A stretch of DNA of 64,000 nucleotides from a virus. Lineage: Duplodnaviria; Caudoviricetes. Within the stretch, counting starts at the first letter, position 1; each line of letters begins with the position of its first letter. Below the pieces are notes generated by a model. It searched no databases. It was not told the DNA's origin and was given only the letters and a program-made list of their open reading frames with translations. Below are positions 61,101-63,706 of this stretch, one piece after another. A program made the translations under genes and the position numbers. Where the stretch lies: positions 192,001-256,000 of the IMG/VR virus record IMGVR_UViG_3300050156_000143. One strand, 5' to 3'.

Positions 61101-61682
61101 ATGAAAATATGCGAAGTAATCGCCCCTGGGCGCACTGGGCATGACAGGTTTTGGTCATGGTTCAACGGTTCAAAAATAGTGGATAAAACGGGTGATCCCA
61201 TTGGTTGTTATCATGGGACAGGTCATCAATTTGACCGCTTTCGGGTGAGCGATAAAGGGTGGACACAAGGGACAATTTGGTTTTCATTGTCACCAACCAT
61301 TGCCAGTGGATATGCCGGGGGCAAGTACGAATTTGATATTAACCCTGGGGGTAATGTTAGACCATGTTTTTTGCGAGTGGTTCGTCCATATGTGATTGAT
61401 GCCAAAGGCAAATATTGGAACGAAATCCATAGCAAAAAGATCGCCAAATATTATGATCAGGCAGGCCACATCGATGACGAACTGTTCACCACAGATGATA
61501 TAGCAAGGTATGCCAAGGATACCAATCATGATGGGGTGATTATTCGTAACGTAGTTGATCCATCCCTTGGTGGGCACCATGTTCCTAGCACTGTAGTAGC
61601 AGTTTTTAGGCAAGATCAAGTCGCTGGGGCGTTCACGTTGGACACGGAGAGAGAACACGGTCAAATGGAACTTGATCTCTAA
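61101..61682 (+). CDS. ADP-ribosyltransferase-like protein (ART-PolyVal type), copy A
   Basis: YHGT...IWFSLSP.IAS.YA...GNVRPCFL...HDGVII. Confidence 0.7.
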   Translation: MKICEVIAPGRTGHDRFWSWFNGSKIVDKTGDPIGCYHGTGHQFDRFRVSDKGWTQGTIWFSLSPTIASGYAGGKYEFDINPGGNVRPCFLRVVRPYVIDAKGKYWNEIHSKKIAKYYDQAGHIDDELFTTDDIARYAKDTNHDGVIIRNVVDPSLGGHHVPSTVVAVFRQDQVAGAFTLDTEREHGQMELDL

Positions 61683-61752
61683 CCGTGAGTGTGCATTGTG
61701 AACAACAAAATGGTGCTATGATGGGCACCAATGTTTTTTATGGGGGGGTGTC

Positions 61753-61953
61753 GTGGACGAATCGAGACTGGCCGATATTTTGAGAGGATTTTCTATTGGA
61801 GACCGGGTGCAAGTTGGTGAATATGGGGTTGGGACTATTATACAGATAACCAATAACCTCTATCTTGTTAGATACATAGATAAACCATGTTGGTGGACTT
61901 TTCCATATTGGAATCATGTCAGCAAATTGACCCATTATTATGAGCCACAATGA
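61753..61953 (+). CDS. small SH3/KOW-like protein, array member 1
   Basis: MDESRLADILRGFSIGDRV. Confidence 0.7.
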   Translation: MDESRLADILRGFSIGDRVQVGEYGVGTIIQITNNLYLVRYIDKPCWWTFPYWNHVSKLTHYYEPQ

Positions 61954-62416
61954 CCAAACTGTTTGGTATCACGGTACTTACCACGATTTTGAACAATTTG
62001 ATTTGAAATTTACTGGCCAACGTGGCATGAAGTCTTGTGCGATTTGGTTCACATCATCACCCCAGGTGGCAAGTGATTATGCCATGTGTGGGTATTCTGA
62101 TAAGGTGTTTGATGACGATGCTGTGAAACATCGTTATATCAAAATGGGCGGTAACGTTAGGCAATGTTTGCTCACCTTGTCTCGACCAATGGTTTTAGAT
62201 GCGGGCGGGGCACTGTGGACACGTGTTCCTTTTGCTGACCAGTATGGCACCCCCCAGATAAAGACTATCGCTGAGTGCAGCGAATGTGCTAGACTGGTGG
62301 GACACGATTCGATGATCGTTGAAAACGTTGTGGATGTTTCTACGGGTGGGAAGAAAATTGCTAGCACAGTGGCAGCAGTGTTTTCCCACACTTTGATAAC
62401 CAGTTTGTATGAATGA
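61940..62416 (+). CDS. ADP-ribosyltransferase-like protein (ART-PolyVal type), copy B
   Basis: YHGT...IWFTSSPQVASDYA...GNVRQCLL...HDSMIV. Confidence 0.7.
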   Translation: MSHNDQTVWYHGTYHDFEQFDLKFTGQRGMKSCAIWFTSSPQVASDYAMCGYSDKVFDDDAVKHRYIKMGGNVRQCLLTLSRPMVLDAGGALWTRVPFADQYGTPQIKTIAECSECARLVGHDSMIVENVVDVSTGGKKIASTVAAVFSHTLITSLYE

Positions 62417-62648
62417 GGGGTTATGTCAAATGGACGAATGTGATTTGGCTGATATGTTAATTGGTTCGTTTCAACGAGGTGACCTGGTGAGTGCTCACGG
62501 TGTTGTTGGAACATTCCTGTGGTATTCTGTTAGCGGCAAAGATGCCTATATTGAGTTCAAAATTCAGGATGGGCCGATAACCCATCAATATAGATATATC
62601 CCAATTTCATCGGTTAAACGTGTTTGGGGAAATGATGCACAAATTTGA
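62409..62648 (+). CDS. small SH3/KOW-like protein, array member 2
   Basis: MDECDLADMLIGSFQRGDLV (likely start 62430). Confidence 0.7.
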   Translation: MNEGLCQMDECDLADMLIGSFQRGDLVSAHGVVGTFLWYSVSGKDAYIEFKIQDGPITHQYRYIPISSVKRVWGNDAQI

Positions 62649-62988
62649 ACCACAAGATGTTATTCAGGTTGTTCCCACTTTGGAATCTCCCTGTGATGCC
62701 TTTATTGGCGAGTTTGTGGGATACAGTGACGATGATTCTGGTAACACGGTCGTCTTAATTGTGGCGAATGGTGTTCAACACGGTGTTCCACCAGAGTGGT
62801 GTACGTATTTCGGGAGAGTTTTCAAAGTATGGATTATTGAGAGTGAATTGGGATATGGCCAGAAGGTAGTCGAGACCAAAACATTCAATTCTCGATTGCT
62901 GGCCGACCAGTTTGTGAAGCAGTTTAATTCAGAGAATTGCGAAGACTCTGTGCCAGATTGGTACATGTATGCCGAGGTGGTGGAATGA
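62620..62988 (+). CDS. hypothetical protein with SH3-like N-terminus
   Basis: KFEPQDVIQV...IGEFVG; C-terminal VWIIESELGYGQK. Confidence 0.65.
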   Translation: MFGEMMHKFEPQDVIQVVPTLESPCDAFIGEFVGYSDDDSGNTVVLIVANGVQHGVPPEWCTYFGRVFKVWIIESELGYGQKVVETKTFNSRLLADQFVKQFNSENCEDSVPDWYMYAEVVE

Positions 62989-63248
62989 CCGATGTAGACA
63001 ATTTGATTCGCACTTTGCGAGGCGATTTTCAACCGGGTGATATGGTTAACATCGTTTCCGTCCCATTCGCTCGGTATGAATACTATTCGGTTGGGGAGTG
63101 TGGTGAAATACGGTTCCTGGAAGACTACGGTGGTGTGAAGTTCGCATTCGTACACCGGTTTTCTCGACATCATTCTTCTTATCTGCCCGACAACGTGTAT
63201 GTGCGTGTTCAGGACTTGATTTACTATTATGGGGATAACGATGTCTGA
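62985..63248 (+). CDS. small SH3/KOW-like protein, array member 3
   Basis: MTDVDNLIRTLRGDFQPGDMV. Confidence 0.7.
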   Translation: MTDVDNLIRTLRGDFQPGDMVNIVSVPFARYEYYSVGECGEIRFLEDYGGVKFAFVHRFSRHHSSYLPDNVYVRVQDLIYYYGDNDV

Positions 63249-63477
63249 AAGTGATATTGCCGATGTACTGAGAGGTGGGTTCCAGATTGGGGATTATGTT
63301 GTGGTCAATCATGATTTCGAGCAATGCGGAGCACAAGAGATTGGGCGTGTTGATAGTACCACATTGGACGAATCTGGCGTTTCTTGTGTCGTTGTGCGTG
63401 TGGAGATCGCTGGCGGTTCGTATTGGAGTTATTCGATGCCCACTTCAAACTTGAGTTATTATTACCGGGATAATTGA
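63241..63477 (+). CDS. small SH3/KOW-like protein, array member 4
   Basis: MSESDIADVLRGGFQIGDYV. Confidence 0.7.
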   Translation: MSESDIADVLRGGFQIGDYVVVNHDFEQCGAQEIGRVDSTTLDESGVSCVVVRVEIAGGSYWSYSMPTSNLSYYYRDN

Positions 63478-63478
63478 T

Positions 63479-63706
63479 ATGGACGATTTAGAAATTGCTA
63501 GCATTTTGAGAGGGCCGTTCTCAGGCGGTGATTGGGTCAGGGTGAAGCAGGGAATACGCCACGGGGACATTGGCCAGATTGTCGGCCCGCGAGTAGGTCG
63601 ATTTCACTATTGGGTTCGTTTCCAACGCAATCCAAAAATTATCAAAAATTATGGTGGGCATCGATCCATCGAATTTGGAGTATTACTATCCAGACACCCA
63701 AATTGA
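63479..63706 (+). CDS. small SH3/KOW-like protein, array member 5
   Basis: MDDLEIASILRGPFSGGDWVRVKQG..HGDIGQIV (KOW-like). Confidence 0.7.
   Translation: MDDLEIASILRGPFSGGDWVRVKQGIRHGDIGQIVGPRVGRFHYWVRFQRNPKIIKNYGGHRSIEFGVLLSRHPN

Follow-up and report, generated by a model that had tools for sequence, protein, structure and literature searches.

A lineage-restricted family of small SH3-like barrel proteins in a jumbo phage, with a putative role in host takeover or counter-defence

Strongly bent, antiparallel SH3-like barrels of five strands and about 60 residues recur in several described protein families. The KOW domains of NusG and Spt5 (PF00467, SPT5 KOW) combine such a barrel with a signature that runs from a hydrophobic residue through G-D-x-V and a strand to a glycine-rich turn, and the family described below has this signature too. 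The SH3_15 repeats of Mind bomb and the CPH domains are protein-protein interaction modules that occur as repeats in, or parts of, large eukaryotic ligases. The Sm/Hfq fold is defined by an N-terminal helix and a bent five-stranded barrel, with Sm1/Sm2 motifs and assembly into rings. Closest in size, fold and viral origin are small SH3-like phage proteins such as DUF4314 (PF14192), DUF4926 and unnamed clusters in BFVD and the Atlas.

Lineage-specific expansion of a small domain is, likewise, already known in large phages. Bacillus phage G carries about 35 copies of a zinc ribbon (PMC7824862), and the hyperplastic regions of T4-type phages are shuffled at PeSL cassettes (PMC2839356, PMC4122927). 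These expansions resemble the one reported here in that a large phage carries tens of copies of a small domain, located in variable islands that separate conserved core genes, with mosaicism among close strains; the family described below differs in fold, being SH3-like where the phage G expansion is a zinc ribbon.

Here, we report an analysis of a cluster of small genes in a 64,000-nucleotide stretch of DNA (the window, to which positions refer unless stated otherwise) from a 277,516-bp virus with a 127-bp terminal repeat. This virus is a Rak2/T4-like jumbo phage with a Rak2/Atu_ph07-like neck gene (about 40% identity), and leaf litter is the setting of its 277-kb uncultured lineage, with the phage present in metagenome runs X1-X7 from this source.

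Copy number, fold and relatives of the family

A preliminary description of the cluster, made from the sequence alone, had pointed to five small genes that share an N-terminal motif. All five are open frames from the starts proposed, and all begin with the pattern M-[DST]-[ED]-x-x-[LI]-[AI]-x-x-L-[RI]-G-(x)-F-x-x-G-D-x-V; the aromatic ending that had been noted for several of them, H/Y-Y-Y/E, is present in three of the five (61753, 62985 and 63241). The suggestion of an expanded family was an understatement. An iterated HMM search of the whole genome (4,138 six-frame ORFs) recovered 41 firm copies at E <= 2e-9, with the next match at E 0.011, so that the family is far from single-copy; the 41 copies form five clusters and take up about 3.9% of the sequence. 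All are open frames, and members span 66-105 residues with a mostly acidic pI. When the five window genes are left out and an HMM is built on the remaining 36 copies alone, it still recovers them, at E 6.4e-10, 2.1e-9, 2.3e-9, 7.8e-6 and 9.6e-6. Judged by these profile searches, the similarity greatly exceeds chance and the five are true paralogues; the family, restricted to this lineage, has 41 or perhaps 42 copies. The high divergence that had been remarked on is real: the middles differ strongly, and identity between window copies and their best paralogues is 26-41%.

The N-terminal helix motif was not found outside the phage lineage in the databases searched. Neither a scan of IMG/VR with the back-translated N-terminal motif pattern, which gave no match, nor a scan of JGI metagenomes with a sub-family alignment, which gave no confirmed relative, detected the family in collections that may not include the closest records of this genome, and a near-identity DNA search against a phage collection returned no matches.

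Structure prediction bears out the proposed SH3/KOW-like fold. For the fold comparison, the AlphaFold model of copy 4 (pLDDT 63.5, with no usable Foldseek match) was replaced by that of copy 3 (pLDDT 80.4, pTM 0.69), which has a helix at residues 3-12 and five strands (20-23, 39-48, 51-58, 70-74 and 78-80). All 50 listed VIA matches of this model (Z 6.5-8.4) are SH3-like barrels, those at the top (Z 7-8.4) being KOW, Tudor, PsaE, PetP, CPH, the Mib repeat and the Xrn1 SH3 domain. Foldseek probabilities are 0.93-1.00, and about 1.0 to eL21, NusG/Spt5 KOW and CPH; in the Atlas, the neighbourhood consists of small barrels from viruses together with DUF4314, DUF4926 and KOW. The models support a five-stranded SH3/KOW-type barrel behind a short, amphipathic, acidic N-terminal helix. 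Matches to such a fold are generic and say nothing on function.

No copy reaches a Pfam or PHROG threshold. The NusG/Spt5 KOW domains are the best sequence matches in the PDB (family profile against Spt5 KOW, E 2e-5), with structural Z scores of 7.2-8.1, and 3 of 46 members match KOW below its cut-off of 22.3 bits (best E 7.5e-4; copy 5, 17.5 bits). Unlike KOW, however, the phage proteins have an additional N-terminal helix and an aromatic tail, stand alone with no NGN domain, are acidic and number 41. SH3_15 (PF18346, cut-off 24 bits) is matched below threshold by one of 46 members (E 0.0023); the family profile, conversely, finds an SH3_15 multi-repeat protein at E 2.6e-42 over nine repeats, its strongest match, which together indicates a remote relation and not membership. 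The Mind bomb SH3 repeat (PDB 4TSE) aligns to the family model at Z 7.0. CPH domains (PF11515; Cul7/PARC/HERC2) are also found among the structural matches at Z 7.1-7.2 (PARC, Z 7.1 and 24% identity; Cul7, 23% identity), with a single sub-threshold sequence match among 46 members; copy 4 scores 14.3 bits (E 0.055) against a cut-off of 25. SH3_15 and CPH are built into ligases, whereas the proteins reported here are free phage mini-proteins. The order of a helix and five strands resembles the Sm/Hfq architecture; the only sequence match is LSM14 (1 of 46 members, E 0.14), and no Sm or Hfq chain occurs among the listed structural matches. Finally, the DUF4314/DUF4926-type phage proteins superimpose with TM 0.6-0.7 but show no sequence-level relation to the family, and the BFVD matches (E 9e-4 to 0.04) are all annotated 'uncharacterized'.

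Conservation at the protein level covers three elements: the helix, the F-x-x-G-D-x-V of the first strand and the C-terminal strand with its aromatic residues. Each invariant L, F, G, D or V is encoded by two to six synonymous codons, indicating that selection acts on the protein. The helix, for which a docking role had been proposed, may be no more than an element of the fold.

Gene order and signals in the accessory island

The cluster lies between a gp13-type neck gene and the tail sheath gene, which are 6.6 kb apart here versus about 1.1 kb in L012. Among relatives, 80 loci have a neck gene that is 44-65% identical to the one here, and in none of them does the SH3-like family or either ADP-ribosyltransferase (ART) gene of the window occur within 8 kb. 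The absence of the array at this site in distant relatives supports its accessory status.

All genes of the cluster are on the plus strand. ART1 (61101-61682; 193 aa) and ART2 (61940-62416; 158 aa) are the ART genes that had been described as interleaved with the array: both match PF18760 (ART-PolyVal; 70.2 and 39 bits, cut-off 31.2), are 40% identical to each other and reside in the island outside the SH3-like family. AcrIF11 has the catalytic pattern H...Y...acidic (bioRxiv 10.1101/2024.08.26.609590); H11, Y47 and D132 of ART2 are invariant in ART1 and, by this correspondence, are putative catalytic residues. No relatives of ART1 were found in IMG/VR, and a word-indexed protein search with ART2 matched nothing beyond ART2 itself.

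ART1 and the first SH3-like gene are separated by a terminator-like, GC-rich hairpin followed by a T-run (61711-61730; consensus scan). It is the sole hairpin in the cluster, has a ribosome site and start codon directly 3' and is accompanied in relatives by 10-nt and 2-nt indels. Copy 1 (61753-61953; 66 aa, HMM E 2.9e-17, and 2.1e-9 with the out-of-cluster HMM) starts with GTG in the window and ATG in relatives and ends in H-Y-Y-E-P-Q; the ART2 start codon falls within its last codons, producing a 14-nt overlap. Downstream of ART2 lies copy 2 (62430-62648; 72 aa, E 3.1e-12), the fastest-changing copy. The next gene (62632-62988; 118 aa) had been counted as a sixth member with a related start, but no such relationship is detectable (HMM E 2.0; hhalign probability 0.9%), and we exclude this unrelated gene from the family; its C-terminal half weakly resembles phrog_14410 (E 3e-4).

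The start of copy 3 (62985-63248; 87 aa, E 2.7e-17) overlaps the preceding stop codon (ATGA), and its best paralogue, 41% identical, lies in another cluster, at genome positions 55720-55986. Copy 4 (63241-63477; 78 aa, E 5.7e-13) overlaps copy 3 by 8 nt and is followed by copy 5 (63479-63706; 75 aa, E 9.4e-12), which is atypical in being basic (pI 10.9), lacking the aromatic tail and weakly matching KOW (E 0.0037). Beyond it come a 93-aa gene (63715-63996) that is unrelated to the family and gives no match to it, and in whose region 26 letters of 299 differ in one strain (run X3), and the start of another 93-aa gene (63993-64000, continuing past the end of the window; genome 255993-256271). 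The latter matches the N-terminal motif pattern, the family HMM at E 0.011 and, over 28 residues, the family in hhalign with a probability of 83%, and gives no match to the HMM built on copies outside the cluster. It is possibly a 42nd copy with a replaced body, sharing with the family only the N-terminal helix and first strand.

Packing is tight, with overlaps of 14, 17, 4 and 8 nt, a 1-nt gap and a further 4-nt overlap, and the cluster genes would form one overlapping, translationally coupled string. The codons for the C-terminal Y-Y-(E/G) double as the ribosome site or start codon of the next gene; part of the 'constant end' may therefore be imposed by the DNA. A T4 PeSL cassette places an early promoter and a stem-loop between genes, whereas the genes here overlap or abut directly. 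The T4 TATAAATA was not found in the window, and a scan for sigma-70-type promoters yielded fewer sites than in shuffled sequences and none between the genes of the cluster. A late-type TAAATA motif is present upstream of the cluster, at 59611, and within 300 nt upstream of none of the 42 copies.

Variation between strains

Strains with about 95% DNA identity to the window allow the rate of change of two SH3-like genes to be set against that of four flanking genes. The ratio of non-synonymous to synonymous differences is 30:10 in the two SH3-like genes versus 35:87 in the four neighbours (Fisher p 5e-7), and all of the changes fall within residues 11-59. Relative to silent change, amino acids are replaced 4-7 times faster in the two copies than in the neighbours. 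Copy 1 has five non-synonymous differences and one synonymous difference from L092, and a 4-codon in-frame insertion in L095 and run X2. Copy 2 exists as three alleles that are only 75-81% identical, within flanking DNA of about 95% identity. These alleles differ at 14-20 of 72 residues, all within positions 11-59 except for residue 62 in L095, such that the first 10 residues are fixed in all alleles and so are the last 13, bar that one residue. Core indels are of four codons and one codon, and all indels in the population are in frame. By comparison, dN/dS of ART2 among three strains is 0.19-0.24. Copy 2 has a similar dS, but its dN/dS reaches 0.63-0.76 over the whole gene and 0.64-0.96 for the core alone.

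The claim of diversification between constant ends stands for two copies and fails for the other three, which show no differences between strains (copy 4, for instance, is identical in L092 and L093) and thus no diversification on this time scale. From 62632 to 63600 the strains have zero differences, beside about 5% divergence, a mosaic pattern. Furthermore, the dN/dS values of 0.6-1.0, although elevated relative to flanking genes, are not clearly above 1, and relaxed constraint could give the same pattern.

Two sources of the copy 2 variation were considered and rejected. The 34 differences lack the adenine bias of a diversity-generating retroelement target (23 are transitions of all kinds), and the genome contains no second copy of the segment; nor does it contain a donor segment for gene conversion from a paralogue.

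Candidate functions and the alternatives

We tentatively favour, at somewhat less than even confidence, the reading that this family is a lineage-specific repertoire of putative binding modules that lack enzymatic activity and serve in host takeover or counter-defence. The folded scaffold would comprise the constant parts, namely the helix and the first and last strands, and the variable strands and loops would provide the surface for binding. No copy would need catalysis: each would engage a different protein, belonging either to the host or to a competing element, and together they would give the phage a repertoire of small binders or inhibitors. A bolder form of this proposal, with about 40 interchangeable candidate mini-binders on one SH3 scaffold, each with a variable face that neutralises a different defence or takeover target, and conserved overlapping gene ends that permit cassettes to be swapped, gained or lost, is conceivable and appears to us rather improbable.

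Domains of related fold suggest another role. The KOW domain of NusG and the RID domains of CarD/TRCF bind the transcription and translation machinery, and the phage proteins could be KOW/Tudor-type modulators of host RNA polymerase, Rho, ribosomal protein S10 or the ribosome, with copies tuned to different hosts or states. The KOW domains of Spt5/NusG are indeed the best sequence-level matches, single copies weakly match KOW, the PcrA/UvrD tudor domain and CarD_TRCF_RID, and comparable phages that lack an RNA polymerase of their own are known to retarget that of the host (PMC7824862). Every one of these Pfam matches, however, is below the family threshold, 41 very different surfaces are hard to explain by one conserved machine, and most copies are acidic in pI, which speaks against direct binding to nucleic acids. 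We consider this role unlikely.

Somewhat less probable still is that duplication at conserved, overlapping gene junctions produced the copies largely as neutral by-products, with the ends kept constant by the ribosome sites, the start and stop codons and the homology for recombination that they contain while the middles drift. The dual use of C-terminal codons, a core dN/dS near 1 and the mosaic block of zero differences would all fit; yet 41 of 41 frames are open, population indels stay in frame, conserved residues use many synonymous codons, the models show a well-formed barrel, and paralogues old enough to have diverged to 26-41% identity still carry the motif.

T4 Alt and the internal proteins of T4 are packaged in the virion and have only a short N-terminal targeting sequence in common. 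By this precedent, the N-terminal helix could be a capsid-targeting peptide and the small proteins could be injected with the DNA and the ARTs. The position of the cluster in the late structural region, in the neck-sheath interval, and the TAAATA at 59611 are compatible with packaging. That motif is nevertheless missing from the 300 nt upstream of the individual copies, most of which adjoin non-structural genes (RtcB-like and HNH-like, for example); conservation extends past a leader peptide to the first strand and the C-terminus, and no protease-site motif follows the helix. Virion packaging is, on balance, improbable.

Least probable of all is a partnership with the neighbouring ARTs, in which the helix would dock and the variable face pick the substrate, whether the small proteins served as adaptors, as had been proposed earlier, or as regulators or immunity partners. 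Copy 1, ART2 and copy 2 do follow one another directly, each start codon overlapping or nearly touching the stop codon before it, in an order maintained in L092. The predicted complex of ART2 with copy 1 scores 0.30 against a mark of 0.32, which weighs neither for nor against. However, only 5 of 41 copies are near ARTs, the other 36 lie in four clusters with no ART, the other ART-PolyVal matches of the genome (genome positions 65951-66370 and 130224-130379) have no SH3-like copy within 7 kb, ART2 is conserved while a quarter of the residues of its downstream neighbour are altered, and ART1 is interrupted in L092 by a stop codon (CAA>TAA at 61227) next to an intact SH3-like gene. The two ART genes are best read as fellow accessory cargo, not obligate partners, and their proximity as a local coincidence that does not define the family.

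At about 4% of the genome of a jumbo phage, the family is too large to be incidental. If the bolder repertoire reading is true, it would be a phage-side counterpart to a variable receptor repertoire, and if the proteins are binders or inhibitors, they would add a new protein class for counter-defence or host takeover as well as a natural library of small scaffolds. Among uncharacterised proteins of phages, small SH3-like barrels rank with the most common, and every BFVD neighbour of this family is unnamed; with fixed ends and middles that change several-fold faster than neighbouring genes, the family offers a tractable entry point.

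Membership, distribution, and fold of the SH3-like family

The virus record that carries the window (its bases 192001-256000) is 277,516 bp long and has an exact 127-bp direct terminal repeat. Its neck protein, a gp13-type head-tail adaptor (window 60342-61097), is about 40% identical to the counterparts in Rak2-like and Atu_ph07-like jumbo phages, and the window stretch is present in public leaf-litter metagenome runs, all of them DNA.

Open frames were confirmed for five small genes, here copies 1 to 5 (window 61753-61953, 62430-62648, 62985-63248, 63241-63477, and 63479-63706, all on the plus strand). 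Each carries an N-terminal signature close to that proposed in the preliminary description; as found here, it runs M-D/S/T-E/D, a hydrophobic-A pair, an L without exception, R/I-G, and the strand F-x-x-G-D-x-V. The Y-Y-(Y/E) ending also described was found, as H/Y-Y-Y/E, at the C-terminus of three of the five. An iterated HMM seeded with these copies and run against all 4,138 six-frame ORFs of the genome converged on 41 matches (E <= 2e-9; next match, E 0.011), and a second HMM, built without the window copies from the other 36 alone as a guard against circularity, recovered all five window copies (E 6.4e-10 to 9.6e-6). The suspected expansion is thus genome-wide. The gene at 62632, put forward as a sixth member, was rejected (HMM E 2.0; hhalign probability 0.9%). 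Another small gene, which starts at 63993 and extends beyond the window end, matches the family in its first 28 residues only (hhalign probability 83%; HMM E 0.011) and is possibly a 42nd copy with a different body.

The family falls into five groups: clusters at genome 0.15-5.0 kb (7 copies), 46.7-56.3 kb (15 copies, minus strand), and 180.8-188.3 kb (11 copies), the cluster in the window (5 copies, perhaps 6), and three copies standing alone, at 19.0, 26.7, and 122.3 kb. The copy at 122.3 kb (122252-122716; L009:253-717 in a piece of the genome outside the window) is a single 155-aa frame holding two family domains, with the first domain's aromatic tail leading directly into M-N-E-N-D, the second domain's start motif, as though the stop codon at a gene junction had been lost. 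With the possible 42nd copy included, the family takes up 3.9% of the genome and encodes about 3,650 residues. The best paralogues of the window copies are just 26-41% identical and located in other clusters, so the window array did not arise by recent tandem duplication. Most copies are acidic (pI 4-6.5); copy 5, the sole strongly basic member (pI 10.9), lacks the aromatic tail, and its target may differ in kind, for example a nucleic acid.

The AlphaFold model of copy 3, based on 46 aligned sequences (pLDDT 80.4, pTM 0.69), consists of a helix (residues 3-12) and five strands; that of copy 4 was poor (pLDDT 63.5). In an exhaustive comparison of the copy 3 model with 48,161 PDB representatives, the top matches were all SH3-like barrels (Z 8.4-6.5), including the Hpy99I N-domain, Xrn1 SH3, Spt5/NusG KOW, PetP, PsaE, Tudor, CPH, and the Mib repeat. 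Foldseek was concordant, and the family profile matched Spt5 KOW domains in the PDB (E 2e-5), in agreement with the SH3/KOW-like fold originally suggested. Among 1.84 billion representatives, the strongest profile matches were long multi-repeat proteins, the best with nine SH3_15 repeats; single-domain matches that include the N-terminal helix were confined to proteins of this phage itself and to near-identical proteins on small contigs. No single member attains any Pfam family threshold and none matched PHROG. Neither a back-translated motif scan of IMG/VR nor a sub-family scan of JGI metagenomes, collections from which near-identical records may be absent, found further carriers. These results mark the family as an undescribed branch of the SH3-like fold that is restricted to one lineage.

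Gene context and probable translational coupling

The array is followed by a Nudix hydrolase gene (minus strand) and a dNMP kinase gene (plus strand), both within genome 256.6-257.7 kb, and then by the tail sheath gene (599-904, 1090-1686, and 1764-5360, respectively, of L011, a piece of the genome outside the window). The putative Nudix enzyme, lying beside ADP-ribosyltransferase (ART)-like genes, could process ADP-ribose. In 80 IMG/VR loci with a neck gene 44-65% identical to the one here, no SH3-family or ART match was found within 8 kb of that gene, and the closest locus (L012, from a distant relative) has a neck-to-sheath gap of about 1.1 kb, versus 6.6 kb here. By this comparison, the cluster is an accessory island set within the block of late structural genes. 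In T4-type phages, variable islands that separate core genes are well known (PMC2839356, PMC4122927); the promoter plus stem-loop cassettes of those islands are, however, absent from the window cluster.

TAAATA is rarer than expected genome-wide (43 and 42 per strand versus about 68), which is compatible with use as a promoter element. One copy, at 59611, lies 5' of an ART-like gene (59690-60319); the 300 nt preceding each of the 42 SH3 genes contain none. Between ART1 (61101-61682) and copy 1 there is a terminator-like hairpin. Starting at 61753, each gene overlaps or adjoins the next, so translation is probably coupled along a single string of genes. The codons for the C-terminal Y-Y-(E/G/R) repeatedly overlap the ribosome site or start codon of the next gene: the start codon of ART2 (61940-62416) sits within the codons for Y-Y-E in copy 1, and those for Y-G-D in copy 3 include GGGGA, a ribosome-site-like run. 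The tail is thus dual-coded, and its constancy may be partly imposed by translational coupling. Across copies, two to six synonymous codons are used for the conserved residues L, F, G, D, and V; selection therefore operates at the protein level.

Divergence between strains

Three contigs of close strains from other samples span the region: L092 (95.7% identical to the window over 4.7 kb), L093 (99.95%), and the 1-kb L095. Between the window and L092, dN/dS is 0.05 for the neck gene, 0.11 for the ART-like gene at 59690, 0.14 for ART1, and 0.19 for ART2, versus 1.33 for copy 1 (5 non-synonymous, 1 synonymous) and 0.76 for copy 2 (25 and 9). The non-synonymous to synonymous counts are 30:10 for the two SH3 copies and 35:87 for the flanking genes (Fisher p 5e-7). 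Copy 2 has three alleles differing at 14-20 of 72 residues, at positions 11-59 versus L092 and additionally at residue 62 in L095; residues 1-10 and the final 13 do not vary among alleles, and dS (0.19-0.22) is close to that of ART2 (0.12-0.21). The cores also carry in-frame indels of four codons (copy 1) and one codon (copy 2). In these two copies, fast middles and fixed ends were as anticipated, but positive selection is not proven because dN/dS is not clearly above 1; a relaxed middle with strongly constrained ends fits equally well.

A diversity-generating retroelement and gene conversion within the genome were both rejected as sources of the copy 2 changes, since there is no adenine bias and no donor paralogue in the genome. 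Upstream of copy 1, strains differ by a 10-nt insertion beside a CGTGAGTGTG stretch (61683) and a 2-nt indel (61742-61745); the start codon of copy 1 is GTG in the window and ATG in relatives.

From 62632 to at least 63600, about 1 kb comprising a 118-aa gene and copies 3-5, there are no strain differences, versus about 5% divergence from L092 directly to the left, with a breakpoint near 62606-62632. The pattern recurs in contigs from three further metagenome runs (the comparison covered runs X2-X5) and points to a sweep of this segment or to its recent recombination.

Possible roles of the family

We favor, at somewhat less than even confidence, a repertoire of putative non-enzymatic binding modules. 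The helix with the first and last strands would serve as scaffold for a target-specific face, which would be built from the variable strands and loops and directed at proteins of the host or of competitors. A distinctly less probable reading is that the proteins modulate RNA polymerase or the ribosome in a KOW/Tudor-like manner. Near-neutral products of junction-driven duplication appear slightly less probable again, and it is unlikely that the copies are internal proteins packaged with the N-terminal helix as targeting element.

The interleaving of ART genes with the array holds: ART1 and ART2 are both of the ART-PolyVal type (70.2 and 39 bits; Pfam cut-off 31.2). Upstream of the neck gene lies a third ART-like gene (59690-60319) that has diverged further; it has no Pfam match and aligns with both at the C-terminal D-G-V...D-V-S block. 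The earlier suggestion that the small proteins are adaptors of the neighboring ARTs is nonetheless unlikely and the least probable of these readings, since only two of the four genomic places with ART-PolyVal matches touch SH3 copies, unrelated genes (judged by sequence to be RtcB-like, HNH-like, and others) lie among the copies of the other SH3 clusters, ART1 in L092 is interrupted (CAA>TAA at 61227, codon 43, just past the Y-H-G-T-G motif) while the adjacent SH3 gene is intact, and ART2 is conserved whereas its downstream neighbor, copy 2, changes fast. The interrupted ART1 is called as two pieces (42 aa and 145 aa), and the gene seems dispensable in some strains.

The great multiplication of one small domain in a jumbo phage has been published before, for the roughly 35 zinc ribbons of Bacillus phage G (PMC7824862). 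The family is real and undescribed, and the window cluster is a small, somewhat atypical outpost of it.
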